Part shown: positions 6,842 through 53,600 of the stretch, in pieces
Layout: each line of letters starts with the position of its first letter
How positions within the stretch are numbered: position 1 is the first letter of the stretch
DNA from: an uncultured archaeon
GTDB lineage: Archaea; Thermoplasmatota; Poseidoniia; MGIII; CAYLMJ01
Direction: 5' to 3'
Assembly (NCBI GenBank): GCA_964384995.1
Contig: CAYLMJ010000001.1
Location: 100,408 to 164,407, forward strand
DNA: 64,000 nucleotides
Notes under the pieces: model-generated
Databases searched by the model: none
What the model saw: only the letters and a program-made list of their open reading frames with translations
What the model was told of the DNA's origin: nothing
Program-made: the position numbers and the translations under genes

Positions 6842-6886
6842 AGATATCACCGACTGTAAATCGTCACCTTTGCTATCCGGCGACAT

Positions 6887-23075: not shown

Positions 23076-23110
23076 ATTGAATTGGGTTGCCAACCTTGCG
23101 GGTGAATATC

Positions 23111-26100
23111 TTGGCCAAACGCAGTCTTGCGCTTCTCGTTCTATTTATCTTTCTCGTCACCGCCATCGTGGTGCCCCTGAACTGGCTGCCCAACTCCCAG
23201 GCGGCCATTGTCGGGGTCCAGCCTCCGGCCGATGGGGACTGGGTGATCGATGAGAATACCACGGTGACCGATGAGACCGTAGTGCTCAATGGAAATCTCG
23301 TGGTCACCAACAGCTCGAAACTGAGCCTGGTAGATTCCACCATCAAGCTCAACTGCACTGCCGATGGCGATTACGGCATAATGGTCGGCGATGGAAGCAG
23401 CCTGGAGGCCAGCAATACCATCTTTACCCGCAATGGCGACCATGCCTACACCTTTTACCTCGCCGAGGGCTCGACCGGCATCCTGGAAGGCTCCACGGTG
23501 GAGTACGCCGCAGGCAGTGGCGATGACGGCCCGTTGATGTACACCTCCGATCTGGTCATCAACAACACCGTGTTCCGAGAGAGCGAGTACGGGCTGGCCA
23601 TCACCGGAAGCGCGACCATCACCAACAGCACCTTCTACAACAACACCTTGGGCCTGCTGTTCTACGGCGGGGTAGCCGCCAACGACGTGGTGGCCGACAA
23701 CCTCTTCGAGAAGGACGGCTTCAACAACAGCGCCGCCAAGGTGCGCTACGCGGTCACCCCCACCATCACGGTGGTGGACCACAACGAGGCCCCGGTGGAG
23801 GATGCCACGGTCTACCTCAACGACACCTTCGCCACCAACGTGGTGGACGATGTCACCGATGGCGATGGCAAGTCCTATCCCGACATACTGGTGACGGCCT
23901 GGGAGATCCAGAACGACGACACCAACGTCAGCTACGAGCCCTACGACCTGACGGCCCTGAAGCTGGGCAAGGAGAACACCACCCAGGTCAACCCCTCCCA
24001 GGGCAGTGACCTGGATGTCGAACTGCCCCTGAGGGCCGACCTGACGGTGGACGGGGCCGAGCTGATGTGGGGTCCCGGAGGTTCTATCCCCCTGGTGCCC
24101 GCAGGACGTGACAACGACACGCTGTTCACCTACAACCTTTACTTCAACACCGATGACATTCCCGATGGCTGGTACGAGACCGACTACAATGACAGCGATT
24201 GGCTCACAGGTGCCGCACCCTTTGGAGATCGCCAGACCCAAGGGGTCGATGAGAACACTGACTGGGACGAGAACTCAGAGAGCTGGCTGCCCACCCGCCA
24301 TTGGTTCTACCTCCCGGACGACATCACAATCGACGATATTGTACTGAACATCGCCTTCAACAACTACGCATTACCCTACATCAACGGTCATCTCATCTTT
24401 GATGAGAGGGGAGGAGACCAACATGGTGCTCAATACTGGAACAACGACGGCATGGCCACCCTCAACAATGACTGGTTGAACTTCGGCGGCTACAACCTGC
24501 TGGCCGTGAGAGGCCATGACGGAGGTGGAGGCGGTTACAACAGCCAGTGGCTGGACATGGAACTGATGGCCAACTACGTGGACGTGGGCCGCCTGGGCCT
24601 GGTGGTGGACCAAGAGGTCATCGTGGTCTTCCCGGTGGAGAACCAGGGAGTGGCGGAAGCCCAGGGCGCGGCGGTGGAGCTCTACAACGGCTCGACCCTC
24701 ATCGGCTCGACCTCCTTCGATATCGCGGCAGGAGGCACCCGGGATGTGAGCTTCGAGTGGACCCCCGACACCAGGGGCTACGAGAACCTGACGGTGAAGC
24801 TGGACCCGGACGACTCCATCGAGGAGGAGCTGGAGGACAACAACGAGGCCCTCGTGGAGGTCTTCGTGGGCGACTTCGGGGTCAACATCACCACGGATTC
24901 CAACACCTCGGCCAAACGCTTCAACGAAACGGTCTACTTCGATCTCAACCTCACCAACGTAGGTGACATCGATGACAACATCACCCTGATGGTCAATGGT
25001 CTGCCCCGTGACTGGGAGGTCATCCTGACCCCCGAACTGGCACCCCTGGGACCCGGCAACAGCACCATCGTGAACCTGACCATCCATCCCGAGGTCGGTG
25101 CCGACACCGGTTTCTATGACTTCTCGGTGGTGGCCACCTCCAAGTACGGCGGCACCCAGAGCTTCGGCGTCGTTCCCTCGGGCCTTGACAACGAGACCCA
25201 GTGGAAATGGCTCGAGGACCTGGCGGAGGAGGACGATATCCCCGAGAACTGGACCAAGTTCGATTTCGACGATTCAAGCTGGGATTGGGATCCGGCACCC
25301 TTTGGCGATAGTGACCTGGGTGGCGGCAGGGACCGCAACACCGAGTGGTCCGGGAACGAGGAGCACGCTCTCTTCAGGCATTACTTCACCATCCCAAGCG
25401 TGGACGGGGTCATTCAAGGGGCCACCATGGGTTTCTCATCCAACAACTACGGCTCCTATTACCTGAACGAGGAGCTGCTCTTTTCCGATTGGAACGATGG
25501 GCAAGGCCACGGGGCCGAGTACTGGAACGAGGAGGATGCGGTGGATCTCTCCCTCCTGCGCATGGATGAGGTCAATCTGGTGGCCTGCCTGGTGGAGGAA
25601 AGGACCAACACCCAGTGGTTCGATGCCGCCCTCTATCTCGATGTCCTGCTGGGTTCCGTCCAGCCCGCCTCGGTGGAGATCGAACCCACCCATTTCTTCG
25701 ACCTGAACCAGTACGCCGCCGCCCGCAACCACCCCACCAACACCACCCAGTACTACCCCATCCGCATGACCAACTTCGGCCATTTCGAGGATGTCATCCA
25801 GGCCGAGCTCACCATCCTCGATTCCACCGGCGATTGGACCGCCCAGCTGGTCAACACCAGCCGCACCATGGCCGCCGGGGCCGCCGACCAGTTCGACATC
25901 GAGGTCTTCGGCGAGCCCACGCTGGAGAGCACCGACTACATGAACCTCTCGGTGGACCTGTGGATGGAGGACCTGCCGTGGATCAAGTACACCTACCACC
26001 TCAACCTCACCGCCGAGCCTCCCTTCCACGAGTTCGATCTGGACGCCTACTACGCCGACGAGATGCAGCTCAACGGCACCACGATCACCTACTACATCGA

Positions 26101-28387
26101 CATCAACAACCTGGGCAACGTCCAGGACACCTTCGTTCCCACCCTCAACATCACCGGCATCAGCGGCATCTGGGACGTTTCGTTCAGCAGCGCCAACCTC
26201 TCCATCCACGCCTACAGCGAGGCGCAACTGGGCATCATCGTGGAGTCCGACGAGGACCTGCGCTTCTGGGATTACCTCAATCTCACGGTGAACCTCACCA
26301 TCGTGCGCGCCCCCGAGCTTTACCACATCTTCACATTGAACATCACCCCCTACTTCAACGACAACGACCCGCCCGACACCAACGTGGTGGAGCTGGAGCG
26401 CTGGGCCAGGGAGTCCAACATCACCATCGAGTGGGAGGTCACCCGCGATCGCGACGACACCGCCTACTTCTACGTCTACTACAGGACCATGGACCCCGAC
26501 GGGGCCACTTCCGATTACGAGCTGTGGGACATCTACCCGGCCAATGTCTCCTCCGACACCTTCGAGGTGGAGCATGGCTGGGTCTACTACTTCTACAGCC
26601 TGGGCCAGGACGGCTCAAACAACCTGGAGCTGGACCGCGGAACCTACGACACCTACGTCATCGTCGACCTCGAGCCGCCCACCTCGGGCTTCTGGCTCAC
26701 CGAGCTGGGAGAGGGCGTGGCCAAGGGCATCTCCAACAGCACCGAGCTGGGACTCAACTGGGAGCCGGTCAACGCCACCGAGGACAATCCCGACTACGAC
26801 TATACCATCCAGGTCCGCAATCGCACCTTGGCCGGGGCCTTCGGACCCTGGGCCACCATCGAGGGTCTCAACAACGTGAGCATCCAGCAGGGCGAGTACA
26901 ACCCCCTGGACGGACGCATCTACCAGTTCCGCTCCATCGCCACCGACGAGGCGGGATGGGTCGAGGACAAGATCCACTGGGACGTGCAGGTCACCATCGA
27001 CGCCTCACCACCCCGTTCGGGACTCGAGAGGCCGCCCGCCATCACCAAGACCGACACCCACACCCTGGACCTGGTCTACGACGACAAGGACGATGTGGAG
27101 CGTCTGCAGGTCCATTTCGCCCAGTTCCCCGACGGCGAGCCGCCCATCGAGTACACCTGGCTCAATGGCGGCTCCTTCCAGGGCGCCAACGTGCCCGACG
27201 AACTGACCTTCAGCCAGCTCAAGGACGGCCAGCGCTACATCTACCGGCTCATGGCCACCGATGACAATCACAACCAGGAGGTGCGGGAGGGCATCGTGGA
27301 ATACTACACCGGCAACGGCAGTCACGGCCAATCCCTTAAGCTCGCCAAGCTCCCCGTGCCCGCCCCCACCGTGCCCTACAGCCGGGTGACCGTGGTGGTC
27401 GAGGGAGTGGAGGATACCACTCTCCTGGAGTACTTCCAGTGGGACGACATCCCGGCCTACAAGAACACCGCCTTCCATCTCGATTACGACACCGGGACCA
27501 TCAACTTCGGCGACGCCTCCACCGGCTACGTGCCCTTCGATGGCGCGAAACTGCGTATCACCTACGACGCCTACGACGCCTGGACCGTGGTGGACACCAG
27601 CGCCCCCAACGCCCCCAGCGCCATCCACCGCTTCGCCTTCGATGGCGAGGCAGGCACAGCCACCCTCAGCTGGCACCCCTCCAGCAGTGACGACGTGGTG
27701 GCCTACCGCCTGGAGATGGCAACCGATATATCCGGTCCCTGGACCGAGGTGGAGACCATACCCGCCCCCGCCGAGAACCGTGACATCAACGACATCGTGG
27801 TCGATGGACTCTCGGCCGATACCAAGTACCACTTCCATGTCATCGCCATCGACCGCGCCGACTGGGAGTCGGGACCCAACAACCCCATCACCGTCAACGA
27901 GAAGCCCGTCACCAGCAACGGCGACGATGACGATGGCGGTTCGGGCTCGGGGGTCCTGCTCATGCTCCTGCTGGTGGTCCTGGCCTTCGCCGGAGCCATG
28001 GCCTTCATCCTCAACAAACGGCGGACCGACATGCTGGAATCCGACGTGGAAGGTACCCCGGTCGCCGCAACCGGCCAGCTGGTCCCGGTGACCGGCGAGG
28101 TGGCTGCCGGAGCGGGGCTGGCGGTGGTGGAGGAGGAGACCGGTTTCGAGGAGGTCCCCGACTCGGAGGGCGAGTTCGCCTGTCTGGCCTGTGGGATGTT
28201 CTTCAGACCCGATGATGCGGGACCCACCCTGACCTGTCCGGCCTGCGCCCAGGTCGAGGACCGCCCCGGGAACGAGGAAGTTTCGGTGGCGGATGAAGGT
28301 TCCAAGGCCGAGGTCGCCGACCCGGCGGATGAACCCGTCGAGGTCGCAGCGGATGAGGCCGAGACTGAAGAGGATCCAGCCCAGTAA
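23111..28387 (+). CDS. Giant surface glycoprotein paralog 2 (same architecture)
   Basis: GGTGA (23101-23105) then TTG at 23111 gives (M)AKRSLALLVLF, matching the N-terminus of paralog 1. Colinear with paralog 1 at a fixed 5550-nt offset over about 2.2 kb. Tail CLAC..CPAC. Confidence 0.88.
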   Translation: MAKRSLALLVLFIFLVTAIVVPLNWLPNSQAAIVGVQPPADGDWVIDENTTVTDETVVLNGNLVVTNSSKLSLVDSTIKLNCTADGDYGIMVGDGSSLEASNTIFTRNGDHAYTFYLAEGSTGILEGSTVEYAAGSGDDGPLMYTSDLVINNTVFRESEYGLAITGSATITNSTFYNNTLGLLFYGGVAANDVVADNLFEKDGFNNSAAKVRYAVTPTITVVDHNEAPVEDATVYLNDTFATNVVDDVTDGDGKSYPDILVTAWEIQNDDTNVSYEPYDLTALKLGKENTTQVNPSQGSDLDVELPLRADLTVDGAELMWGPGGSIPLVPAGRDNDTLFTYNLYFNTDDIPDGWYETDYNDSDWLTGAAPFGDRQTQGVDENTDWDENSESWLPTRHWFYLPDDITIDDIVLNIAFNNYALPYINGHLIFDERGGDQHGAQYWNNDGMATLNNDWLNFGGYNLLAVRGHDGGGGGYNSQWLDMELMANYVDVGRLGLVVDQEVIVVFPVENQGVAEAQGAAVELYNGSTLIGSTSFDIAAGGTRDVSFEWTPDTRGYENLTVKLDPDDSIEEELEDNNEALVEVFVGDFGVNITTDSNTSAKRFNETVYFDLNLTNVGDIDDNITLMVNGLPRDWEVILTPELAPLGPGNSTIVNLTIHPEVGADTGFYDFSVVATSKYGGTQSFGVVPSGLDNETQWKWLEDLAEEDDIPENWTKFDFDDSSWDWDPAPFGDSDLGGGRDRNTEWSGNEEHALFRHYFTIPSVDGVIQGATMGFSSNNYGSYYLNEELLFSDWNDGQGHGAEYWNEEDAVDLSLLRMDEVNLVACLVEERTNTQWFDAALYLDVLLGSVQPASVEIEPTHFFDLNQYAAARNHPTNTTQYYPIRMTNFGHFEDVIQAELTILDSTGDWTAQLVNTSRTMAAGAADQFDIEVFGEPTLESTDYMNLSVDLWMEDLPWIKYTYHLNLTAEPPFHEFDLDAYYADEMQLNGTTITYYIDINNLGNVQDTFVPTLNITGISGIWDVSFSSANLSIHAYSEAQLGIIVESDEDLRFWDYLNLTVNLTIVRAPELYHIFTLNITPYFNDNDPPDTNVVELERWARESNITIEWEVTRDRDDTAYFYVYYRTMDPDGATSDYELWDIYPANVSSDTFEVEHGWVYYFYSLGQDGSNNLELDRGTYDTYVIVDLEPPTSGFWLTELGEGVAKGISNSTELGLNWEPVNATEDNPDYDYTIQVRNRTLAGAFGPWATIEGLNNVSIQQGEYNPLDGRIYQFRSIATDEAGWVEDKIHWDVQVTIDASPPRSGLERPPAITKTDTHTLDLVYDDKDDVERLQVHFAQFPDGEPPIEYTWLNGGSFQGANVPDELTFSQLKDGQRYIYRLMATDDNHNQEVREGIVEYYTGNGSHGQSLKLAKLPVPAPTVPYSRVTVVVEGVEDTTLLEYFQWDDIPAYKNTAFHLDYDTGTINFGDASTGYVPFDGAKLRITYDAYDAWTVVDTSAPNAPSAIHRFAFDGEAGTATLSWHPSSSDDVVAYRLEMATDISGPWTEVETIPAPAENRDINDIVVDGLSADTKYHFHVIAIDRADWESGPNNPITVNEKPVTSNGDDDDGGSGSGVLLMLLLVVLAFAGAMAFILNKRRTDMLESDVEGTPVAATGQLVPVTGEVAAGAGLAVVEEETGFEEVPDSEGEFACLACGMFFRPDDAGPTLTCPACAQVEDRPGNEEVSVADEGSKAEVADPADEPVEVAADEAETEEDPAQ

Positions 28388-28529
28388 TACCCAGCTAGCT
28401 CCTTGAACCTGAAGATATCCTAGAATTACCAGGGACCTTGGGAGGTAAGGATATTATTCGGGCCCTGCCGAGGGCCTGGATGATGCCTATTTATACTATG
28501 TTCGGGTTGAATTGGCCTCGGGTGATAAC

Positions 28530-31500
28530 GTGGCCAGTCGCAGATATGCCATTTCCTTCAGCTTGCTCCTTCTGCTCTCTTCGCTGTTGCTTCCAGGCCC
28601 GTGGAACTCGCCTGCCCATGGCTCGATGACCGGGGATGAACCCCCGACCGACGGCGATTGGGTGGTGGAGCACAATTCAACGGTTCGCGACGAGAGCATT
28701 ACCCTCAACGGCAATCTGACGGTGACCAACAGCTCGGTCCTGGACCTGGCCAACGTGATCCTGCGCCTGAACTGCACCCTCCCGGACGAGTTCTCCATCA
28801 ACGTGGAGGCCGGTTCTAGCCTGATCGCCGACAACACCACCTTCACCCGCGGCGGCCAGCACAACTACAGCTTCACCTTCGCCGGCGGCTCGGCTGGGGC
28901 CCTCAACGACACGCTCATCGAGTATGCCGGGGCCTCGAGCAGGATGGGGCTGACGCTCCAGAGCGAAGCGGTGAGCCTGACCAACTCCACCATCCGCGAG
29001 AGCTACAACGGAGTGGTGGTGCAGAGCCCGGCCCGGATCGCCAGCAACACCATATACAACACCTCGGTGGGTCTGGCCCTGGCCAACAGCGACGCTGGCA
29101 ACGACGTGGAGGCCGACAACACCTTCGAGCATGAGGACCACGGCAACACCATCGCCAACATCCGGTCCTACCGGCCGGTCACCGTGGTCATCCAGGACCA
29201 GGACGGCCAGGGCCTCGAGGCGGCCCGGGTCTACCTCAACGACACCCTGGGCGGCAACTGGGTCGACTCCCTCACTCCGGCCGACGGCCGGATCGGACCC
29301 ATCTCCCAGGTCGTCTGGGAGGTCACCCCCGGCGGGGTCAACCAGAGCCTGGAGCCCTTCGACCTGATCGCCACCAAGCACGGGCGCAGCAACTCCACCC
29401 GGGTCACACCCTCCAACACCACGACCCTGACCCTGGAGCTCAAACTCCTGCCCGACCTGGCGGTGGAGGACTCCCAGATATTGTGGGGAGCCACGCCAGT
29501 TTCCTTGACAGTGGTGCCCTCGGGCCGGGACAACGACACCCAGTTCAAGTACCGGATCATGGATGACCCGTCCCAGTTTCCCTCGGGCTGGTACGAGCCC
29601 GGCTTCAACGATTCGGCCTGGAACGTCAGCGCCGCTCCGTTCGGTGACAAGGACCAGGCCGGGACCGATCTCAACACCATCTGGGATTCCGAGGGCGAGG
29701 ACCCCTACACCAAGGACCATCTCCTGCTCCGTCACCGGTTCACCCTGCCCGAGGGTGCCAGGGTCCTGGACTCGGCCCTCAACGTGGCCTTCAACAATTA
29801 CTGCACCCCCTACCTGAACGGGAACAAGATCTACGACGAAAGGGGCTCCAACACCCACAGCGCCTCCTACTGGAACGGGGACGGGGACGCCGATGTGGAC
29901 CCTGACCACTTCACGGCCGGAGAGAACGTCATGGCCATCTACGGCCGGGACTACGTGTACCAGAGCCATGGCCAGAACAGCCAGTGGCTGGACTTCCAGC
30001 TCACCGCCGAGTACTACATCCCCGGTCGCGGAGACCTGGTGGTGGACTACTCCACCCTCATCGTGACCACCGTGGAGAACCGGGGGGTCGCGGCCGCCCA
30101 GGGCGTCCAGGTCAACCTCTACAACGACTCGACCCTGATGGAGACCAAGACCGTGGACCTGGGCGTCGGCGAGCAGAAGAACGTCTTCTTCGACTGGACC
30201 CCGGGTCACAATGGCACCCAGGTCCTGACCGTGGAGGTGGACGAGAGCCAGGCCATCGAGGAGGAGAACGAGACCAACAACAATGCCTCGGCGGAGGTCT
30301 TCGTGGGCGGCTACGGCATCAACCTGACCACCGATGACAACCACACCGCCATCACCTACAACCTCTCCCACCAGTTCAACCTCACCGCCTTCAACTACGG
30401 CGACATCAACGACAACGTCACCCTGGCCCTGACCCCGATGAACGACGTTACCGGATGGCAGACCCATCTATCACCCCAGCTCCTGGAGATGGAGCCTCAG
30501 GAGAGGTTGAACACCTCCCTGTCCATCCAACCTGTACGCGGGGCGCCGGTGGGCAATTACTCTTTCATCATCGCGGCCAACTCCCAGTTCCAATCCACAG
30601 GTTACACCACCCTGGTCCCCTCCCATTCCGATTGGCGCTGGCTTGACACCGACAACCCTCCCGCAGGCTGGGAGGAATCAGATTACAACGATTCGGGATG
30701 GAGCGAGGCTCCCGCCCCCTTTGGTGCGGGTTCGAACTTCGAGGACGAGGCCACTGAATGGGGCGGCAACGGATGGAGTTCCGATGACGAGGCGGTCTTC
30801 AGGCTCAGGTTCGATCTGACCAGGCCCATCAAGGAAGCCGTGCTCAAGCTGGCTGTGGCCGACGGGGCCCGGGCCTATCTCAACGGGGTGCAGGTTGTGG
30901 ATGACCTACAGGGCGACAATAACGATGGTTCCAGAGGGGCATCCCACTGGGACTACATCACCGGTGAGAAGCCCTCGGGCCTGGCGGCGTTGGATCTCGG
31001 CCTCCTGAACATTGGTGAGAACGTGCTGGCCATCCGCGTCTTCGATACCGGCCGGGCCAACTTCTTCGACGCCGAGTTCGATGTGGCCTATCATAGCGAG
31101 AACACCCAGGAGCTGGTGGTGGAGATCCTGCCCACCCACGACTTCGATCTGGGCAGTTACACCGATGAGTTCGAGCATCCCACCAACACGACCCAGGTCT
31201 ACACCATCAATCTTCACAACTACGGTCACTTCAACGAGACCATCGAGGCCCAACTGCAGGTCAACGACCAGCAGGGCGACTGGACCCACAACCTCTCGGC
31301 CGACAACCTTACCCTGGAGCCCGGCACCGGCGGCAGTCTCACCCTGGAGGTCTTCGCCAACGAGAGCCTCACCCTGGAGGACTATCTTGATCTCACCTTC
31401 ACCTTCCAATCACAGGAGGCTCCCTGGGTCAACCACACCTACGATCTCTTCCTGTGGGCCGACCCGCCCCATTACGAGTTCGAGCTGACCGACCCATCCG

Positions 31501-34364
31501 GTGATGAGGAGCACACGGGAGGCTCCACGGTGTACTACCCCATCGAGGTCACCAACAGCGGCAACCTCAACACCACCCTCAAGGCCACCTACCAGGTCCT
31601 GGACCAAAGCGGCAACTGGACCGTCGGGCTGGCACCCGCCCAGCTCACGCTTCAGGAGGACGAGGTCGGCCAGTTCGACCTGGAGGTCACCGGGGCCAGG
31701 GACCTGCGCGACTGGGACCATCTCAACGTCTCGGTGACAGTCTACCTTGACGACCACTTCGAGCTCAACGAGACCTACCTGCTCAACCTCACGGCGGTGG
31801 AGGCCGACCGGGGGTACTCACTGCACAGCGATTTCGAGAACCACAGCCAGCTGAACAACACCGTGGAGGTCTACTCCCTGACGGTGACCAACCTGGGGAG
31901 TCTCGATGAGATCGTCCTGGCCAACGTGACCATCCTCGAGCAGAGGGGGAACTGGTCCGTCAGACTGCTGGACGACAGCGTGGACCTGGCGGAGGGTGGC
32001 ACGGCGGATGTGGAGATCGAGGTGACGGCGGCTCCCGAACTGCGTTTCTGGGATTACCTGAACCTGTCGGTGGAGGTCACCCTGGAGCAGGGGGCCTGGC
32101 TTCGGGACAGCTACGTGCTGAACGTGACGCCCATCTTCGACGACCATTACCCGCCCGAGACCCGCCTTGTGCCCATGGGCTCCTGGGTGAGGGAATCCAA
32201 CGTGACCCTGGAGTGGGAGGTCATCAAGGATGAGTTCGACACCTTCTACTTCCAGATCCATTACCAGACCGAGGATCCCGGAGGCAACACCTCCGAGTGG
32301 GGTCTGTGGCAGACCTTCAACTACACCACCACCTCGGCCACCTTCCCGGTCCAGGACGGCTGGAGCTACTACATCTACAGCCTGGGCCAGGACGCCCAGG
32401 GCAACCTGGAGCTGGACAAGAAACCCCTCTGGGACAACCATTTCACGGTGGACCTGGAACCCCCCCAGACCCGCCTGTGGCTGACGGATCCGGAACTGGC
32501 AGTGAACAAGGGAACGGTGACCCAGACCGAGCTGGGCCTGGAATGGGCCCCGGTGAACCACTCCAGCCATGCCGATACCGACTACACCTACACCATCGAG
32601 GTCCGCAACCGCTCGGCGGACGGGGCCTTCGGGCCCTGGCAGCCGATGGTGGGTCTTGCGGACACAAAGGTCCAGAACGGCGATCTGGAGGCCCTGGACG
32701 GTCACACCTACCAGTTCCGCTCCATCGCCACCGACCCGGCCGGATGGGTGGAGAACAAGAGCGGCTGGGACCTCCAGGTGGCCATCGACCAAACACCGCC
32801 GGTGACCGGCATCCTGCCCCTGCCCGCCATCCGGGCCGAGACCGAGGTCACCCTCCTGCTGGAATACGAGAACAAGACCGATGTGGCCGAGCTCGAGGTC
32901 CAGTACACCAACTTCCCGGAGGACACACCTCCCAACGAGTATGTCTGGCTCAAGGGGGGCACCTTCCAGCCGGGCCTTCAGGGCCTGCCCGACGACCTGC
33001 AGTTCACCAAGCTGAGCGACGGACAGCGCTACCTCTTCCGCCTCATCGGGACCGACGCCATGGGGAACGTCGAGCCCAGGGACGGGGTCGTGGAGTACTA
33101 CGTGGGCAACCAGACCCCCGGTCAGACCCATCAACTGGGGAAACTGCCCCTGCCATCCCCTTCGACCCCCTACAGCAAGATCAAGGTGGAGGTGGACCCC
33201 GATGGTGATGGCGATTTCGAGGACACCCTGGTGGAGTCCCTTGACAGCGAGATACCCACCAACTCCCCCAACACCTTCCATCTGGACTACACCACCGGCG
33301 TGATCCACTTCGGCCATGGCACCGCCGGCTTCGTGCCCGCCAATGGCACCCAGATCAGGATCACCTACGACGCCTACGACACCGGCACCCTCATCGATTC
33401 CGTGGCTCCCAACGCCCCCGGCGTGTTCGTCAGGTCCGAGTTCAACGAGACCGACGGATCGGCCGAGCTCATCTGGAGGATATCCTCCAGTCCCGACGTG
33501 GTGGCCTACCGCGTCGAATGGACCACCGACCTGAACGGGAACTGGACCGCGGGCCCGGTCGTGGCGGCGGTCTACAAATCGGAGGTGGTCGGCGCAACCC
33601 TGCGGGGCCTGCCCACCGACAAGACCCTCTACGTGCGGGTGGTTTCCGTGGACCGGGCGGGGCTGGAATCGCCGGCCAACGCCTTCGCCACGGTGAACGA
33701 GCAGGCCGTGGAAGGCGAGGATGACGATGACGAAGGCTTCGACCCGACGGTCATGTACGCGCTCTTCCTGCTCAGCCTGGTGGCCTTCACCGTGATCGGC
33801 TACATGCTAATGAGAAGGAAGGACGAGCCGGCCTCGCCCCCGGGATTGGAGCCTCCCCCGCCGGCGGGTGTCTCGGTCATCCCAGCCCAGGAGGCCCGGG
33901 TGGTGGCGGCCCTGGAGGCCCACACCGTATACAAGCGGCCCCAGGGAAACCCCGATGAGCTGAACTGTCCCGATTGCGGATATTACTACACCCCGACGGG
34001 GGAGGACGAGGACCCCGCCTGCCCGGCCTGCGGCTTCCAGGATTCGAAGGTGGATGCGGAGGAGAAAGGGCAGGACGATGGACCGACCGGGGACCTGGAT
34101 GAAGATAAAGAGTCTGAGAAAGAACCAGGCACCGAGCCGGAGAAAGGGACGGAGCAGGACAAGGAAGATGAGGAAGTGCCGGGAACGGACTCGGATGATG
34201 AGAAACGCGGTGAGACCGAAGACCTGGAAGGTTCGGATGATGCCTCCTCCGAGGAACCCGTCCCCGCCGATAGTGATGAGGGAGCCACGCCTCCTGCCGA
34301 AGATGCAGAGAGCAAGGCAGATAGTGAGGATGTTGAGGCACCCGACAAGGATACCGAACAGTAG
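28530..34364 (+). CDS. Giant surface glycoprotein paralog 3 (more divergent, one extra Ig/NEW3-like module)
   Basis: GGTGA-TAAC-GTG at 28530; same domain order; TM VMYALFLLSLVAFTVIGYMLMRRK; CPDC..CPAC; long D/E-rich tail. Confidence 0.88.
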   Translation: MASRRYAISFSLLLLLSSLLLPGPWNSPAHGSMTGDEPPTDGDWVVEHNSTVRDESITLNGNLTVTNSSVLDLANVILRLNCTLPDEFSINVEAGSSLIADNTTFTRGGQHNYSFTFAGGSAGALNDTLIEYAGASSRMGLTLQSEAVSLTNSTIRESYNGVVVQSPARIASNTIYNTSVGLALANSDAGNDVEADNTFEHEDHGNTIANIRSYRPVTVVIQDQDGQGLEAARVYLNDTLGGNWVDSLTPADGRIGPISQVVWEVTPGGVNQSLEPFDLIATKHGRSNSTRVTPSNTTTLTLELKLLPDLAVEDSQILWGATPVSLTVVPSGRDNDTQFKYRIMDDPSQFPSGWYEPGFNDSAWNVSAAPFGDKDQAGTDLNTIWDSEGEDPYTKDHLLLRHRFTLPEGARVLDSALNVAFNNYCTPYLNGNKIYDERGSNTHSASYWNGDGDADVDPDHFTAGENVMAIYGRDYVYQSHGQNSQWLDFQLTAEYYIPGRGDLVVDYSTLIVTTVENRGVAAAQGVQVNLYNDSTLMETKTVDLGVGEQKNVFFDWTPGHNGTQVLTVEVDESQAIEEENETNNNASAEVFVGGYGINLTTDDNHTAITYNLSHQFNLTAFNYGDINDNVTLALTPMNDVTGWQTHLSPQLLEMEPQERLNTSLSIQPVRGAPVGNYSFIIAANSQFQSTGYTTLVPSHSDWRWLDTDNPPAGWEESDYNDSGWSEAPAPFGAGSNFEDEATEWGGNGWSSDDEAVFRLRFDLTRPIKEAVLKLAVADGARAYLNGVQVVDDLQGDNNDGSRGASHWDYITGEKPSGLAALDLGLLNIGENVLAIRVFDTGRANFFDAEFDVAYHSENTQELVVEILPTHDFDLGSYTDEFEHPTNTTQVYTINLHNYGHFNETIEAQLQVNDQQGDWTHNLSADNLTLEPGTGGSLTLEVFANESLTLEDYLDLTFTFQSQEAPWVNHTYDLFLWADPPHYEFELTDPSGDEEHTGGSTVYYPIEVTNSGNLNTTLKATYQVLDQSGNWTVGLAPAQLTLQEDEVGQFDLEVTGARDLRDWDHLNVSVTVYLDDHFELNETYLLNLTAVEADRGYSLHSDFENHSQLNNTVEVYSLTVTNLGSLDEIVLANVTILEQRGNWSVRLLDDSVDLAEGGTADVEIEVTAAPELRFWDYLNLSVEVTLEQGAWLRDSYVLNVTPIFDDHYPPETRLVPMGSWVRESNVTLEWEVIKDEFDTFYFQIHYQTEDPGGNTSEWGLWQTFNYTTTSATFPVQDGWSYYIYSLGQDAQGNLELDKKPLWDNHFTVDLEPPQTRLWLTDPELAVNKGTVTQTELGLEWAPVNHSSHADTDYTYTIEVRNRSADGAFGPWQPMVGLADTKVQNGDLEALDGHTYQFRSIATDPAGWVENKSGWDLQVAIDQTPPVTGILPLPAIRAETEVTLLLEYENKTDVAELEVQYTNFPEDTPPNEYVWLKGGTFQPGLQGLPDDLQFTKLSDGQRYLFRLIGTDAMGNVEPRDGVVEYYVGNQTPGQTHQLGKLPLPSPSTPYSKIKVEVDPDGDGDFEDTLVESLDSEIPTNSPNTFHLDYTTGVIHFGHGTAGFVPANGTQIRITYDAYDTGTLIDSVAPNAPGVFVRSEFNETDGSAELIWRISSSPDVVAYRVEWTTDLNGNWTAGPVVAAVYKSEVVGATLRGLPTDKTLYVRVVSVDRAGLESPANAFATVNEQAVEGEDDDDEGFDPTVMYALFLLSLVAFTVIGYMLMRRKDEPASPPGLEPPPPAGVSVIPAQEARVVAALEAHTVYKRPQGNPDELNCPDCGYYYTPTGEDEDPACPACGFQDSKVDAEEKGQDDGPTGDLDEDKESEKEPGTEPEKGTEQDKEDEEVPGTDSDDEKRGETEDLEGSDDASSEEPVPADSDEGATPPAEDAESKADSEDVEAPDKDTEQ

Positions 34365-34517: not shown

Positions 34518-37500
34518 ATGCGACGCGCTCTGAACCTGTTCCTCTGGGCCCTGCTGTTGCTCACCGTCGGTTGGATGCTCACAGCCCAACCTGGCCAGGC
34601 CATCTCGCTGGCCACCGAGGACATCCTCATCGATACTCCCAGCCTGAACGAGACCTCGCCCCATCTGGACGGCGAATGGCTGGTCTGGCAGGATGACAAC
34701 GGCACCGGCTTCGACAGTGCCAACCAGTTCCGCCTCTGGGCCAGGGACCAGGGGGCACGGGCCGCCGGCGACAGGCTGCTGGTCGACAACACCACCACCT
34801 ACAGCCCGGTCTACCTGGAGGACCCCTGGGTGGTCTGGGAATCCAAGAACCCCACCGGCGGTGACGTCCTTTACGCCCACAACCTGGACGACAACACCAC
34901 CACGACCCCCCTGTGGCCCTACGAGCCCACCAAGTACCATCTCTCGGGAACCTTCCTCTACTACTCGGTCTACAACGGCCAGACCATGAACACCACCTTC
35001 TGGGAGCATAACCTGGCCACCGGCTCGGAGAAGGAGCTCCACACCGAGGCCGGTTCCATCTACAGCTGGGACGTGGACCGCCCCAACCTGATCTTCGCCA
35101 ACAGCACCGACCCCAACGAGACCCTGTGGCATATCACCCTGGGCAGTCGGGCGACGCCCTCCGAGCTCAAGGTGGCCGACATGTTCTCCAGCCTCATCAT
35201 CGTGGGGGACTGGATCGCCTGGACCAACGACACCTCGGTCTTCCTGATGAGCCTGGACGGGGCGCTGTTCTACGAGCTCGAGACCTACATGGGCTACGTC
35301 AACGACACCTACGAGTATCCCTACGATCTCCACCTGGACGGCGACTGGCTGGTGTGGACCGTTTTCAGCTCTCCCGATGGTGACAACCATTACGCCTACG
35401 GCTATGCCCACCATATCCCCACCGAGACGACCATTCCCATCGTGTCCAAGTCCCGGAGTGAAACCGGCCAGACCGGCCTGACGGTGGACCAGGACCGCTT
35501 CGTCTGGCAGGACAGCCGCGGCGCCACCCACGACCTCTGGTGGCGGGAGGTGGCCAATCAGCCGCCCACGGCCATCATCGACTCCATCTCCCCGAACCCC
35601 GCCGAGCAGGGTACCACGGTCTTCTTCTACGGCAACGGCGACGATGCCGACGGGACCATCGCGGCCTACGAGTGGACCTCCAATCTTGTGGGCGGGACCC
35701 TGTCCACGGCCCAGAGCTTCAGCTCCTCCTCCCTGCCGCTGGGAACCCACTCCATCTCCCTGAGGGTCCAGGACAACGAGGGGGAGTGGTCCGAGGCGGT
35801 CACCGAGACCCTGTCCATCACCGCCGCAACCTCCAACGAGGCTCCCACGGCCTACATCAGTTCCATCTCGCCCAATCCGGCCAAGCCGGGACAGATGGTG
35901 AACTTCATCGGCGGTGGCAACGACCCCGACGGCTCCATCGTCTTCTACAGCTGGTGGTCGAGCCGGGATGGCGAGATATCCTTCGAGGCCGAGTTCAGCA
36001 CCGATTCGCTGAGCGAGGGCACCCATTACATCAGTTTTACCGTGGCCGACGATGACAATGCCTACTCCGATGCCGTTGACGCCACCCTGGTTGTGGGCAA
36101 CGCCACGGGCCCGGTGAAGCACATCGACTTCTCCCACCCCGAGGAGGACGGCGAGAAGGTGGAGGGGGACACCCCGGTGTACGTCTACCTGACCATGGAG
36201 GGGGAAGAGAAGCTCTACTACTCCCATCCCCACCGCATCCGACTCCTGCTGGAATCCCCGGCCCTGGACACCAAGACCCTCTTCGACACGGCCAAGAACG
36301 GCTCGGACGAGATCCACGGCGAGAGTATCTTTGCCGTCAACATCTCGGCCATGGACCTGGAGATGCTGAAAAGCTACCTGAAGGACTACGGCTCGGCCTC
36401 CTACTTCTTCCCTCTGGAGGGGACCCTCTTCACCGATGAGCTGCCCAACGGCAGGTACACCCTGCGGACCGAGATACTTGACAGCGAGGGCGAGGTCATC
36501 ATGTCGGCCGAGCGGACCATCGTGGTGGAGAACCCCCGCATCGAGCCGGCACCCGCGGTGGCCGGCGCCGCCGTGGGCGTGGTGGCCGGAGGGGCCGCCG
36601 GAGCGGCCCTGGGAGGCGCCGGGGCGGCCGCCGGAGGCGCGGCCGGAGGAGCCGGCGGTGGAGGGGTCCAGGCCGATGGCGTGGGCTCCAAACTGCGCCG
36701 CAAGAAGAAGCTCACAGGAGGCCTCTTCGGCGAGGGCTTCGCCATCCTCCTGGCCCTCATCGGCATGGTGCTGGCCTACGCCTACGCCAGCCTGGCCCAG
36801 CCCACCCTGGACCCTCTCTCCAACCTCGGCCAGTTCAACACGGTCCTGCTCTCGGACATCGGCGGCTTCCTGGCCGACCTGGGCCACATGGTCCTCTTCC
36901 TGGGCATGGTCATGGCCATCGTCATCATCTTCAGGGCCGGCGTGGACCACCTGGCGGCCCAGGCCCAGGGGGTCAAGTCGGTCTTCAAGCTCCAGGCCCC
37001 GGGAACGGCGGCGCTGGGACTGTCGACAGCCCTGTTCGGCATGCCCTTTGGCTATCCCGCCCAGTCGGTCCACGAGAAGAAGGCGGGCAACGAGCTGAGG
37101 GAGGCCCGCATCGCCATGTCCCAGATAATGGGCACCCTGGTCCTGGTGCTGCCCTTCTGGATCATCTGGCAGTTCGTGGAGGTGGCCCGGTTCATGGCCG
37201 AGATAGGCTTAACAGTGGTGCTGATGACCGCATTCTCCATCGCCATCCCCCTGAAGCACAGCGAGGGCCGCTCCATCTACCGGTGGAGCCGGGAGCTTTC
37301 GCTGGTCATGATGGTCATCCTGGTCTTCTTCTTCTACGGCTGGCAGCTGGACTTCCTGCCCACGGCCCTGCTGCCCCTGCTGGGCCTGGCCGGCATCGCC
37401 GCCATGCCCAACCTGCTCAAACCGGCGCCCAGGGGACCCTCACCCTACGACGACCTGGAGGACGAGGGACCCGGCGACCTGCCCGAGGCGCCAAGGGGCT

Positions 37501-37937
37501 GGGAGAAGGAGCCCGAGGGCGACGAGGCCTTCCGGCCCCCGGACAAGCCGAGGACCGGCTGGGGCGACACCGAGCCCGGAGCGCCAGGCGAGGCGCCGCC
37601 GGGAGATGGCTGGGGCGAGCCCCCCTCACCTGACACCGCCGATGTCGACGGGCCGCCCTCCGAGCCGTTGCCCGAGGCGCCGCCACTGCCCGACGAGCCC
37701 CTGCCAGCCCCCGCCCCCGTCGAGCCGCCCCTGGGCCCACCCGAGGTCGAGCCCGAGGTGAAACCGGATGTGGAGCGGCCGCCCGAGGCCGAACCGGAGA
37801 TAGAGCCCGAGGTCGAGCCCGAGCCGGACGAGGAACCGGAAGAGCCCAGAGAAAGAGAGGCCGCCGCCTGCATCAGCTGTGGGAAGGCCATCGACACCAA
37901 CTGGAAGATCTGCCCCTACTGCTCGACCAAGCAGTGA
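34518..37937 (+). CDS. Surface/membrane protein: beta-propeller repeats, two PKD-like domains, Ala/Gly-rich segment, degenerate M50(S2P)-like multi-TM domain, Pro/Glu linker, double Zn ribbon
   Basis: Signal peptide; repeats such as PHLDGEWLVWQD and LTVDQDRFVWQDSRG; PKD-like NQPPTAIIDSISPNPA and NEAPTAYISSISPNPA; about 7 TM helices; C-terminal CISCG..WKICPYC. Confidence 0.82.
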   Translation: MRRALNLFLWALLLLTVGWMLTAQPGQAISLATEDILIDTPSLNETSPHLDGEWLVWQDDNGTGFDSANQFRLWARDQGARAAGDRLLVDNTTTYSPVYLEDPWVVWESKNPTGGDVLYAHNLDDNTTTTPLWPYEPTKYHLSGTFLYYSVYNGQTMNTTFWEHNLATGSEKELHTEAGSIYSWDVDRPNLIFANSTDPNETLWHITLGSRATPSELKVADMFSSLIIVGDWIAWTNDTSVFLMSLDGALFYELETYMGYVNDTYEYPYDLHLDGDWLVWTVFSSPDGDNHYAYGYAHHIPTETTIPIVSKSRSETGQTGLTVDQDRFVWQDSRGATHDLWWREVANQPPTAIIDSISPNPAEQGTTVFFYGNGDDADGTIAAYEWTSNLVGGTLSTAQSFSSSSLPLGTHSISLRVQDNEGEWSEAVTETLSITAATSNEAPTAYISSISPNPAKPGQMVNFIGGGNDPDGSIVFYSWWSSRDGEISFEAEFSTDSLSEGTHYISFTVADDDNAYSDAVDATLVVGNATGPVKHIDFSHPEEDGEKVEGDTPVYVYLTMEGEEKLYYSHPHRIRLLLESPALDTKTLFDTAKNGSDEIHGESIFAVNISAMDLEMLKSYLKDYGSASYFFPLEGTLFTDELPNGRYTLRTEILDSEGEVIMSAERTIVVENPRIEPAPAVAGAAVGVVAGGAAGAALGGAGAAAGGAAGGAGGGGVQADGVGSKLRRKKKLTGGLFGEGFAILLALIGMVLAYAYASLAQPTLDPLSNLGQFNTVLLSDIGGFLADLGHMVLFLGMVMAIVIIFRAGVDHLAAQAQGVKSVFKLQAPGTAALGLSTALFGMPFGYPAQSVHEKKAGNELREARIAMSQIMGTLVLVLPFWIIWQFVEVARFMAEIGLTVVLMTAFSIAIPLKHSEGRSIYRWSRELSLVMMVILVFFFYGWQLDFLPTALLPLLGLAGIAAMPNLLKPAPRGPSPYDDLEDEGPGDLPEAPRGWEKEPEGDEAFRPPDKPRTGWGDTEPGAPGEAPPGDGWGEPPSPDTADVDGPPSEPLPEAPPLPDEPLPAPAPVEPPLGPPEVEPEVKPDVERPPEAEPEIEPEVEPEPDEEPEEPREREAAACISCGKAIDTNWKICPYCSTKQ

Positions 37938-50686: not shown

Positions 50687-53600
50687 GTGGTGAGCCCGGT
50701 GACCCTGCTGCTCCTGGTCACGTTCGTGACCGCCGGAGCCGTGGGTCTCCAGGCTCTGAGACAGCCCCGCCTCTTCTCCATGGCCTGGCGCAACATCCTG
50801 CGCCGCAAGTCCAACGCGGCTCTGGTGGTGGGCGGCCTGCTCATCGGCACGGCCATCATCTCGGGTTCCCTGGTGATGGGCGACACCCTGGAGAACATCT
50901 TCGTCTCCGAGGTCTACTGGTTCACCGGGGAGAACGACCTGCTGGTCTACGGTTTCGACCCGACCGGCGGTTTCAAGACCTTCAACGAGACCTACTTCGA
51001 TGAGCTGGCGGCCAACGGTTCGATCCAGGACCTGCGGCGAACAGGTGACATAGACGGCCTGGCCCCCATCCTGCTGAAGGAAGGGGCCATCATCCTGCTC
51101 AATGGGACCGATGAGTGGACCCAGGGCGAACCCCGCATCAATGTCATCGGCATCGACCCGGCGGCCGAGCAGACCTTCGGCGACCGGCCCCTGGCCAACA
51201 TCGATCACGGTTCCGGCGAGGGTGTGGCCCTGAACTTCATGCTGGCCGACGAGCTGGGAGCCGCAGTGGGTGACCGGCTGCTGCTCTTCCCCGGCCGGGA
51301 GGACCTGCCCGCCGATCTCAACATCTCAGTGGAGGTGACCCGGGTCTACCCCGAGGAGCACGGCGACGCCGACCTGCTGGGGGGCATGAACTGCTTCATG
51401 GAGCTGACCGCGGCCCAGGAGCTCTACAACCTCACCGGCCGCATCAACGGCATCCGCATCTCCACCGAGGGCGGCATCCGCAACGAGGCCAGGGGCACCG
51501 GGACGGTCCATCGAGCGGTCAACGACACCCTCAACGATCTGGTGACCCTGGATGACCTGGGTCTCTCCCTGGCCATGGACGACCTGACCCTGCTGATCAC
51601 CGAGACCCTGCTGGGCGAGGACTTCCTTCAGCGGCTGGAGGAGCGGGAGGAGGTGACCAGTGTCCTGCCCCTGCTGACGGTGCCGGTGGCCATAGGCGAT
51701 GACCAAGGCAATGGCAGTGATGATGGGAATGGAAGCACCAACGGCAGTTCCCATGGCTCGGGCCAGGCCCTGCCCCTGATGCTCCTGGGCGCCGACCTGG
51801 AGGAGGTCCTCCAACCCGGCATCCTGTACACCTCCAGTGAACTGGCGGTCCATTACAACCTCTCCAACGCTACCAATCTCACCAGCCTCCTCACCGGGTC
51901 CAACTTCTCCCTCACCGTGGAGACCCTAAACCTGACCGAGCTGGGACTGGCCCTGCCTCCTGACGCGGGTCTCATCGGTGTGGTCCAGGGCGATACGGCC
52001 CGCTCCGTGCTCTTTGGCCAGACCGATTTCGTGGCCTACAATGGCGTGCTCCTGACCGCCGCCCCCGGCGCCAACGGCTCCGCCATCCTGGCCCAGGAGA
52101 TAACCCTGGCCGAGATGGGTCTGGAGACCCACCGGTTCAAGGAGGAGTTCCTGGAGATAGCGGAGAACGCCGCCGAGATGATAACCCAGATCTTCCTGGT
52201 GCTGGGCCTCTTCTCCATCGCCGCCGGCATCATGCTCATCATCAACATCTTCGTGATGCTGGCCTCGGAGCGCAGGGGCGAGATGGGCATCTCCCGGGCC
52301 CTGGGCATGCAGCGGACCCATCTGCTCCAGATCTTCCTCTTCGAGGGCACCATCTACGCCGTCCTGGCGGCGGGCGCGGGAACCCTGATGGGCATCGGCG
52401 TGGGCTTCGTCATCATCCAGGCCTTCAGCTACATCTTCGCCGAGGGACAGCCCATCGGCGAGCTCTTCACCTACACCGGGCAGAGCCTGACCCTGGCCTT
52501 TGCCGCCGGGATGCTGGTGACCACCCTGACGGTGTTGGTGGCCTCATGGAAGGTCTCCAAGCTCAACATCGTCACCGCCATCCGCAACATCCCCGAGGGG
52601 CTCAAGGCCACCACCAACCTCCAGCGCCTCGGCGGTGTGGGCCTGGCGGTGGGGGTCCTGTTCACCCTGGTTGGCTTCAGCACCACCAACTACACCCTCA
52701 TCATCATGGGCCCCTGCCTGGCCGCCCTGGGAGCCATCCCCCTGGCCATCAGATGGAGCAGGTCCGCGGACCAGGCCATGTTCGTCGGCGGTCTCGTCAC
52801 CGCCCTCTGGGCCCTGGACCCCCTGCGGCTGGCCATGGATGACGACAACTTCGTGCGCTTCTTCTCCGACGGCATGCTGCTGGTGACCGGGGGACTGCTG
52901 ATGCTGCTCTCCCAGACCCATCGCATCCTGAGGTTCCTGGACTGGCTCACCGCCCGCTCCAAGTACACGGCCCTGTTCAAGACCGGCCTGGCCTATCCCC
53001 TGCACAACCGCTTTCGCACGGGCATGACCCTGGCCATGTTCGCCCTGATCATCTTCACCGTCACCACCATCTCCCTGTGGCAGTCCATCTTCGCCTCCTC
53101 CAACAGCGAGTTCATGGAACGTGAATCCGGGGGCTACCAGATAATTGCCTTCCTCAATCCCGACGTGGAGGTGGACCTGGAGGCCGAGCTGGCCGCCACC
53201 GAGAACGAACGGCTGAAAGGCCTGGCTCCTCTTGACGAGGGGGGTGCGGTGGGCCTGCTCAGGGTCCACATGGCCAACATCGAGCTGCACCAGGGGGCCA
53301 ATCAGCGGGTCTCCAACCTCTACGGCGTGGACGGTGAATGGCTAACCCATTCGGAGTACACCTTCGCCATAGACCACGATACCGAGGAGGAGGTCTACGC
53401 CAGGGGCTTTTCCTACTTGGACCGGGAGGGGGTGGAGCACACCATCGAGGAGCCCGGCGATGTCTGGAACGCTATGGCCCGCAACGACACCCTCTTCGTG
53501 GGCGATGGATCCTTCCTCTGGGTCCAGGGGGAGGAGGAGGCCGGTCCGCCCCAGGCGACCGAGATCGAGGTGGGTGACGAGGTGCAGGTGGAGGTGGGCG

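Follow-up and report, generated by a model that had tools for sequence, protein, structure and literature searches.

A predicted inactive site-2-protease homolog, proposed as an anchor and binding scaffold, in the membrane region of an archaeal surface protein

Why would an archaeon build a six-helix membrane domain resembling a site-2 protease (S2P, family M50) into a large surface protein if the residues that bind zinc and cut peptides have been replaced? This question is raised by a gene for a 1139-residue protein in a 64,000-nucleotide stretch of DNA, hereafter the window, from an uncultured archaeon (GTDB lineage Archaea; Thermoplasmatota; Poseidoniia; MGIII; CAYLMJ01; assembly GCA_964384995.1, contig CAYLMJ010000001.1, positions 100,408 to 164,407 of the forward strand); gene calls on 10 public contigs from marine metagenomes, the longest about 170 kb, include the identical gene. 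An earlier reading of the letters without database searches (the sequence-only reading) had proposed a catalytically dead M50-like domain at 36740-37420 (residues 742-968), an interval that nearly coincides with the six-helix block that hydropathy places at residues 735-968, and the peptides it quoted lie in frame in the open reading frame (ORF), at residues 803-925. Here we find that the domain does follow the M50 pattern and is a true M50/S2P homolog by profile (hhalign) and by fold (Foldseek). We consider it very likely that it is an inactive homolog which diverged from the small archaeal M50/site-2 proteases. That such an inactive homolog also works as a non-proteolytic anchor and peptide-binding scaffold, keeping the substrate-binding hairpin of S2Ps, is the combined reading that we favour with moderate confidence.

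Pfam and NCBIfam scans of both the whole protein and the isolated domain returned no M50 match. A word-indexed protein search gave no match with the domain as query (window 36675-37472) and at least five proteins with a family profile; this search missed even the window's own protein, which is present in the collection, and its negatives are therefore untrustworthy for membrane domains. Because the word index is ineffective for such a hydrophobic family, an exhaustive HMMER search was needed, for which phmmer was run with the single domain sequence against 1.84 billion protein cluster representatives (clustered at 50% identity; E-value 0.001 or below). It matched 114 representatives (given here as P numbers), nearly all of them large proteins in which the match lies close to the C-terminus or at it. 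Among them is P0053, a Pfam-positive M50 protein, which this single-sequence search returned at E 5.2e-6. Both P0053 and P0099 pass the cutoff of the Pfam model Peptidase_M50 (PF02163), with 33.7 and 31.5 bits against a threshold of 27.2. Together with P0097 they carry HExxH at the exact position of R806-A-G-V-D810 in the window protein, and P0053 and P0099 additionally carry AGP/SGP and LDG.

Profile comparison places the family firmly within the M50 proteases. Three profiles were used, namely A1, made from 37 family members that all lack HExxH, A2, made from four intermediates that bear HExxH or HExxI, and A3, made from four small archaeal 'Zn-dependent proteases', three of which pass the Pfam M50 threshold. 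With hhalign, A1 aligned to the intermediates of A2 at a probability of 99.8% (E 8.3e-29, 179 columns) and to the canonical archaeal M50s of A3 at 98.7% (E 2.5e-16, 179 columns) with the motifs in register; in the latter alignment FRAGVDHLAAQAQGVKSVFKLQ stands opposite THEFAHKAVAQKNGLWAEFRLT and AFSIAIPLKHSEGRSIYRWSR opposite AAFNLIPFGILDGYKIFSFNK. As a control, A2 and A3 also match E. coli RseP. Against the single RseP sequence A1 gave a short, weak alignment (P 0.03) that lays the pseudo-HExxH helix on H22-E-F-G-H26, and the P0053 domain gave collinear but weak RseP matches at all three motifs in a search of PDB sequences. The single window domain retrieved no S2P from PDB sequences, just compositional matches to ABC-transporter helices, and the family profile found nothing in them. 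We give next to no credence to the idea that the resemblance is due to chance, or that the window holds a lone degenerating allele of an active protease. Pfam and NCBIfam indeed fail to recognise the domain, as either would lead one to expect, but chance is refuted by the two profile E-values and by S2Ps being the top structural matches, while a lone degenerate allele is refuted by the loss being common to the ortholog and to nearly all family representatives, and by the domain having the lowest rate of nonsynonymous substitution (dN) in the protein (see below).

The register of the three M50 motifs was checked against the HExxH-bearing relatives and the canonical archaeal M50s. None of the signatures HExxH, AGPxxN/GxxxN and NxxPxxxLDG is present in the window domain, and the alignments bear out all three replacements that the sequence-only reading had named, RAGVDH for HExxH, a lost AGP..N and SIAIPLKHSEG for NxxPxxxLDG (Table 1). 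Loss of the zinc ligands is conserved in homologs. The only ortholog that the domain query found in GTDB genomes, L004 from a metagenome-assembled genome of an uncultured archaeon (74% identity), keeps RxxxD and PLKHSEG and likewise has no catalytic residues, and HExxH is missing from 111 of the 114 cluster representatives. His is present at position 806 in 7, Glu at 807 in 26 and His at 810 in 3 of 108 representatives, and position 916 is Asp in 9, Glu in 33 and Pro in 46 of 113; all four catalytic residues occur together in just two of the 114. P0119 shares 44% identity with the intact P0053 and keeps a TGP motif, but its HExxH has become IPKVIQ and its LDG reads MEG. Because P0119 is degenerate though related to an intact protein, the alignments suggest that catalysis was lost more than once, and independently, in this family. 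From the motifs we predict that the window domain has no activity in zinc-dependent intramembrane proteolysis.

The same positions bear on the alternative that the domain is still a hydrolase or a metal-binding enzyme whose site has been remodelled, built in the close clade from Asp810, Glu916 and His852 (plus His914 in the ortholog pair) and in other subclades from Glu807, Glu810 and Glu916. Carboxylates do persist at two of the former ligand positions (D/E810 in 77 of 108; E or D916 in 42 of 113), the catalytic position retains the Glu counted above in about a quarter of the sequences, and the close clade conserves a His852-Glu/Asp853 pair, QS[VLI]H[ED], after the hairpin. However, no polar residue is invariant family-wide, the near-invariant ones being Pro and Gly (P911, G829 and G917), and Pro is frequent at position 916. 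Moreover, the close clade has Arg at the first ligand position, where a cation could then not sit, and the window protein itself has Ala for the catalytic Glu and has lost both AGPxxN and the Asn of NxxP. We consider a remodelled enzyme very unlikely. In the close clade, the three zinc-ligand positions are taken by Arg806, Asp810 and Glu916, probably as a salt-bridge network in place of the metal.

Structure prediction agrees with the profiles. The AlphaFold2 model of residues 734-976 (243 residues), computed with A1, had a mean predicted local distance difference test score (pLDDT) of 92.9 and a predicted template-modelling score (pTM) of 0.88. In Foldseek searches of the PDB this full model gave no match at E 0.001 or below; SpoIVFB ranked second, yet had the best probability (0.47) and the best template-modelling score (TM-score, 0.36) listed. 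A model of the core alone (residues 778-948, pLDDT 92.0) retrieved SpoIVFB 8VJL (E 0.05, probability 1.00, TM-score 0.55), the Methanocaldococcus jannaschii S2P 3B4R (E 0.09, probability 0.93, TM-score 0.47) and SpoIVFB E44Q 8VJM (E 0.12, probability 0.99, TM-score 0.56). S2Ps alone exceed a probability of 0.2, the fourth match falling to 0.08 with a TM-score of 0.20. This ranking is specific though the E-values are modest and, taken together with the profile evidence, it leads us to regard the assignment of the modelled domain to the M50 fold as secure. Both models also show a strand-helix-strand element directly after the pseudo-HExxH helix, a place that in S2Ps is taken by a membrane-reentrant beta-hairpin, and the S2P core fold, a helical bundle with a reentrant beta-hairpin after the first motif, is found in the window domain.

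Despite having lost its catalytic residues, the domain is under purifying selection and shows more constraint than any other part of the protein. Between the window protein and L004 the pseudo-M50 domain is 77% identical without gaps, compared with 51-54% for the propeller and PKD regions, 63% for the Ig-like stretch and 53%, with indels, for the Pro/Glu-rich linker; dN is 0.16 in the domain and 0.39 in the ectodomain, and its ratio to the synonymous rate (dN/dS) is 0.30 and 0.49, respectively. Consistent loss of catalytic residues in relatives and purifying selection on the dead domain, the two marks of a pseudoprotease, were thus both observed. The near-invariant residues are structural (P911 in 113/113, G829 in 108/109, G917 in 109/113, and also F880). 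The densest cluster of strongly conserved columns is the hairpin (F823, R/K824, W826, G829 and P843-F844-G845-x-P847-G848), and a second conserved block, P911-x-x-P-L-x-G917-x-x-[VI]-[WFY]-x-W-[NS]-K, lies in a putative cytoplasmic loop.

These features suggest what the domain might do in place of cleavage. S2Ps capture substrates by strand addition (beta-augmentation) to a membrane-reentrant sheet beside the zinc site (PMC11486902), the cleft of SpoIVFB can be filled by a transmembrane segment of its inhibitor BofA (PMC9042235), and the plant S2P pseudoprotease EGY3 acts non-proteolytically, by stabilising other proteins (PMC10978774). We propose that the window domain, without cleavage activity, would serve as a polytopic anchor and also as a binding scaffold, having kept the substrate-docking platform of S2Ps, the membrane-reentrant beta-hairpin and its neighbouring helices. 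An extended peptide or a helix of small residues could dock on this platform, either in cis, from the hydrophobic segment that precedes the domain in the same protein (TM0) or from the basic juxtamembrane linker, or in trans, from a segment of a partner membrane protein, and through such binding the ectodomain would be linked to adaptors in the cytoplasm, in the window protein the zinc ribbon. The specific docking mechanism is a tentative part of this proposal, and we would sooner expect it to need revision than to stand as drawn.

Several points weigh against the scaffold reading. The binding function is deduced from conservation, any particular ligand being conjectural, and the acidic residues that persist at two of the three ligand positions could belong to a remodelled metal site, perhaps one that includes the His852-Glu/Asp853 pair of the close clade. 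The Pfam M50 model misses the window protein and 37 of 37 HExxH-less members even at E 10. The Foldseek E-values reach just 0.05-0.12, with no significant match for the full model, and the RNA runs searched for the gene yielded no transcript evidence.

The sequence-only reading had also suggested that the domain may regulate an active S2P, and the corresponding alternative casts it as a regulator or partner dedicated to a separate active S2P, in the way that iRhoms serve rhomboid-linked pathways. Analogy to pseudoproteases such as iRhom (PMC3149277) and EGY3 (PMC10978774) makes this conceivable, and the retained substrate-docking elements could compete for substrates. No active partner was encountered, though: a motif scan and a six-frame profile search of the 64-kb window gave no other HExxH/LDG ORF and no M50-profile match, no active M50 was seen among the neighbour genes called around P0010 or beside the query gene in the P0053 loci, and in profile scans of the P0010 and P0053 loci the matches were limited to the query genes, no neighbour carrying the domain. 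In addition, because the module is fused to ever-changing ectodomains, it fits a generic membrane module better than a specific regulator. We judge a regulatory role of this kind unlikely.

At least 114 clusters at 50% identity share the M50-derived membrane module under many different ectodomains. These include PQQ/BamB-type propellers (P0006 and P0008, from the clade closest to the window protein), a Kelch propeller (P0013), NosD beta-helices (P0011, P0017, P0020, P0050, P0053 and P0099), PKD, CARDB and Big_7 domains (P0014 and P0090) and an S-layer-like domain (P0097). The tail that follows the module is shorter than 40 residues in 77 of the 114 representatives. A zinc ribbon lies downstream in seven, mostly closer relatives of the window protein and including P0002-P0004 and P0010; as a defining part of the family it was rejected, being absent from the other 107. 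P0003 and P0004, which belong to the closest clade and are 40-42% identical to the window protein in the domain, carry HEAT repeats and then a zinc ribbon in their cytoplasmic tails. Because HEAT repeats are added there before the ribbon, the cytoplasmic tail seems to serve protein interactions and to differ from one relative to another.

In most of the 77 members scanned, the domain comes after a small-residue-rich hydrophobic segment like TM0, and these TM0 equivalents have a median Gly+Ala+Ser+Thr content of 62%, compared with 33% in the second transmembrane helix (TM2) of the same proteins. After TM0 and ahead of the first M50 helix, the distant members P0009-P0012, P0097 and P0118 share a putatively cytoplasmic motif of the type G-E-[ED]-x-L-x-x-[RK]-T, and the clade of the window protein has at that place G-V-[KR]-S-x-T followed by a Lys/Arg run. 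A TM0 of this kind also suits the alternative of a purely structural anchor, in which the six helices and TM0 would form a closed bundle with TM0 in the former cleft, whose one task would be keeping large glycosylated ectodomains membrane-bound, with neither partner binding nor signalling. Its small residues would allow tight helix packing, the ectodomains are interchangeable, and the module usually ends the protein, with short tails in most members and a zinc ribbon in few. Anchoring alone, however, needs no six-helix module, because the neighbouring giant surface proteins of the window manage with a single ordinary transmembrane helix. Furthermore, conservation is strongest in two elements that face the cytoplasm, the hairpin and the P-x-x-P-L-x-G-x-x-[VI]-W-x-W-N-K loop, and not in the lipid-facing helices. 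A purely structural role, though plausible, appears doubtful to us.

A bolder form of the scaffold proposal is that the S2P scaffold was turned into a general docking module for surface proteins in archaea, mostly or wholly in Thermoplasmatota-like and other uncultured lineages; we think this fairly improbable. Here the dead cleft, with Arg and carboxylates in place of zinc, would permanently grip a small-residue transmembrane segment or a juxtamembrane peptide, supplied either by TM0 of the same protein or by the tail of a giant surface protein nearby. Large glycosylated ectodomains would in this way be linked to zinc-ribbon or HEAT-repeat adaptors, as a device for transmembrane signalling or assembly. 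If true, prokaryotes would here provide their first S2P pseudoprotease system, one that goes back to repeated and independent losses of catalysis.

How the domain sits in the whole protein is set out in Table 1. The ORF appears to encode a type-I-like archaeal cell-surface protein, with the ectodomain outside, TM0 crossing from outside to inside and the six M50 helices following. The former active site would face the cytoplasm as in S2Ps, and the Pro/Glu-rich tail and zinc ribbon would be cytoplasmic. We infer this topology from three features, the confinement of all 12 of the protein's N-glycosylation sequons to residues 25-675, the concentration of Lys and Arg of the membrane region in alternate loops, and hydropathy. 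The juxtamembrane linker contains the basic cluster KLRRKKK, and the close clade keeps its pattern GV[KR]SxT..K+K in the alignment. All four Cys of the zinc ribbon are kept in L004, and the ribbon has sub-threshold Pfam matches to DZR, Zn_Ribbon_1 and Zn_ribbon_3.

Table 1. Coordinates, in the window, of the gene, its parts and other ORFs mentioned in the text.
Feature	Coordinates	Strand	Residues	Basis or remarks
Whole gene	34518..37937	+	1139 in all	ORF list; signal peptide, ectodomain, TM0, pseudo-M50, acidic/proline-rich linker, zinc ribbon
Signal peptide-like N-terminus MRRALNLFLWALLLLTVGWMLTAQPGQA	34518..34601	+	1-28	Hydropathy, sequence
Putative 7-bladed beta-propeller	34635..35552	+	40-345	W-rich motifs, weak TIGR04275 match, relatives
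Two PKD domains	35556..36107	+	347-428 and 440-530	Pfam PF00801, E 9e-16, two stretches
Further extracellular region, possibly Ig-like	36108..36542	+	531-675	Weak E-set/DUF4165 hints in Pfam scan
TM0, Gly/Ala-rich hydrophobic segment EPAPAVAGAAVGVVAGGAAGAALGGAGAAAGG	36543..36674	+	676-719	Hydropathy 1.83
Basic juxtamembrane linker DGVGSKLRRKKKLTG, putatively cytoplasmic	36675..36719	+	720-734	Sequence, positive-inside rule
Pseudo-M50 (site-2-protease-like) six-helix membrane domain	36720..37421	+	735-968	hhalign, AlphaFold, Foldseek
RAGVD at the HExxH position	36933..36947	+	R806-A807-G808-V809-D810	His to Arg, catalytic Glu to Ala, His to Asp
Strand-helix-strand element VKSVFKLQAPG...PFGYPAQSVH	36972..37073	+	Strands 820-824 and 847-851	DSSP, both models
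MSQIMG at the AGPxxN position (lost)	37116..37133	+	From M867	Aligned with P0053, P0099 and P0120-P0122, which keep AGP/SGP
IAIPLKHSEG at the NxxPxxxLDG position	37239..37268	+	I908-G917	P911 and G917 kept, Asn lost, Asp to Glu916
Pro/Glu-rich low-complexity linker, putatively cytoplasmic	37422..37853	+	969-1112	Sequence
C-terminal zinc ribbon CISCGKAIDTNWKICPYC, then stop codon	37854..37937	+	Ribbon 1118-1135	CxxC...CxxC
Giant-protein ORF	1679..6886	-		
Giant-protein ORF	8244..13916	+		
Giant-protein ORF	17534..23014	+		
Giant-protein ORF	23087..28387	+		
Giant-protein ORF	28512..34364	+		
FtsX/MacB-type permease	50687..54250	+	1187 in all	

The sequence-only reading had described the chain as a propeller, two PKD domains, a pseudo-M50 domain and a zinc ribbon. 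The PKD domains are recovered by Pfam and the pseudo-M50 domain and the ribbon also stand, while the propeller is the putative part of this architecture. Seven W-rich motifs are spaced by about 45 residues in the N-terminal region, five of them found by pattern scan (GEWLVW, DPWVVW, RPNLIF, GDWIAW and GDWLVW) and two weaker ones picked out by eye (GTFLYY and DRFVWQ). The NCBIfam scan gave a weak match to TIGR04275 (E 0.087), P0006 and P0008 have their true PQQ/BamB-type propellers where the window protein has the W-rich region, and a PDB sequence search with the region gave no match; the region is a candidate beta-propeller. An ectodomain, a polytopic domain and a cytoplasmic zinc ribbon in one chain would be compatible with the single-chain transmembrane receptor that had been suggested.

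The source names seen for HExxH-less members all read 'hypothetical protein', and the annotation of one family member names Candidatus Thermoplasmatota. Wherever a gene context could be read it was archaeal, with Orc1/Cdc6, TFIIB, TFIIS and archaeosortase genes, and the window itself has geranylgeranyl reductase and TtuA. The family, for which there is no Pfam or NCBIfam model, is unannotated and apparently archaeal. Its hairpin holds a trap for automated annotation: at residues 440-455 of P0053 the segment FRVWGTGTIITLLSAG gives spurious phmmer matches to antibody heavy-chain J regions, with E-values down to 0.002, because it resembles the J-region sequence WGQGTLVTVSS.

Upstream of the gene, an island of five giant secreted proteins (1735-1950 residues) occupies 1679-34364 of the window. 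Each combines a signal peptide with a huge ectodomain, a single ordinary transmembrane helix and a cytoplasmic CxxC...CxxC zinc ribbon, and most have an acidic or proline-rich tail; that every large surface protein of the island ends in such a zinc-ribbon tail is striking. Their ectodomains comprise BNR/sialidase-like domains with CARDB, an M6 InhA-like peptidase, and beta-helix, CARDB and fn3 domains. The third and fourth giants in Table 1, and also the fifth, are paralogs. Because stretches of their C-terminal ectodomains are nearly identical (YDAWTVVDTSAPNAPS...AYRLEMATDISGPWTEV), the sequences point to recent tandem duplication among adjacent genes. Further downstream lies the gene of an FtsX/MacB-type permease of unusual length, in which a MacB periplasmic core domain is combined with some ten hydrophobic segments.

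Rhomboids supply familiar examples of intramembrane pseudoproteases, the iRhoms and Derlins. For S2Ps, the plant protein EGY3 was the sole example that our literature searches found. The family described here would add a prokaryotic S2P pseudoprotease module with an architecture of its own, though not a categorically new system. It is a sizeable unannotated family in which an S2P scaffold without catalysis is strongly conserved under interchangeable surface domains, and recognising it closes a gap in the annotation of many large proteins of archaea. Moreover, it offers a natural set of 'substrate-platform-only' S2P variants together with rare intact relatives, which may help to separate docking from catalysis, and it provides a handle on how marine archaea that are wall-less or bear an S-layer mount giant surface proteins.

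Finally, comparison with known systems shows what the window domain shares with S2Ps and where it departs from them. Its nearest counterparts are the small archaeal M50 proteases (PF02163; P0121 and P0120, with the M. jannaschii S2P 3B4R as solved relative), with which it has in common the six-helix core, the order and spacing of the motifs, the segment A-x-R-x-x-G-x-x-x-E-F-R-[IL] after the first motif, the hairpin and the segment P-x-x-x-L-x-G-x-x-[IV]-[FW]-x-[WF]-N-K, as well as the same putative topology with the active-site face toward the cytoplasm. Unlike them, it has replaced HExxH, AGPxxN and the Asn and Asp of NxxPxxxLDG, carries an extra helix between the two hairpin strands, is preceded by a large secreted ectodomain and TM0, and is missed by the Pfam model. 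P0120, a canonical small archaeal M50, has an N-terminal AN1 zinc finger before its intact M50 domain and is another case of a cytoplasmic zinc finger joined to an M50-type protease. P0053 and P0099 share the layout of signal peptide, ectodomain (a NosD beta-helix), upstream helix and M50-type domain; they differ in retaining HExxH, AGP and LDG, from which they are probably active proteases, and they come from another archaeal lineage than the window protein.

Bacillus subtilis SpoIVFB (8VJL, 8VJM) is the best structural match of the core model, and its membrane-reentrant sheet beside the first motif is a substrate-docking element (PMC11486902), the counterpart of the hairpin on which our proposal turns. 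In contrast to the window domain, to which it is 13% identical in the structural alignment, SpoIVFB functions as an active zinc protease, carries a CBS domain on the cytoplasmic side and lacks an ectodomain. Arabidopsis EGY3, a pseudoprotease of the S2P family in chloroplasts, likewise has no HExxH zinc motif and is partner-stabilising and non-proteolytic (PMC10978774); it differs in being a eukaryotic protein of plastids, in lacking a large ectodomain and in having lost its motif independently, and we liken it to the window domain by description and not by sequence. The iRhoms and Derlins, unrelated in fold and catalytic chemistry, resemble the family in concept alone, in that the scaffold of an intramembrane protease is kept for client binding after catalysis is lost (PMC3149277).

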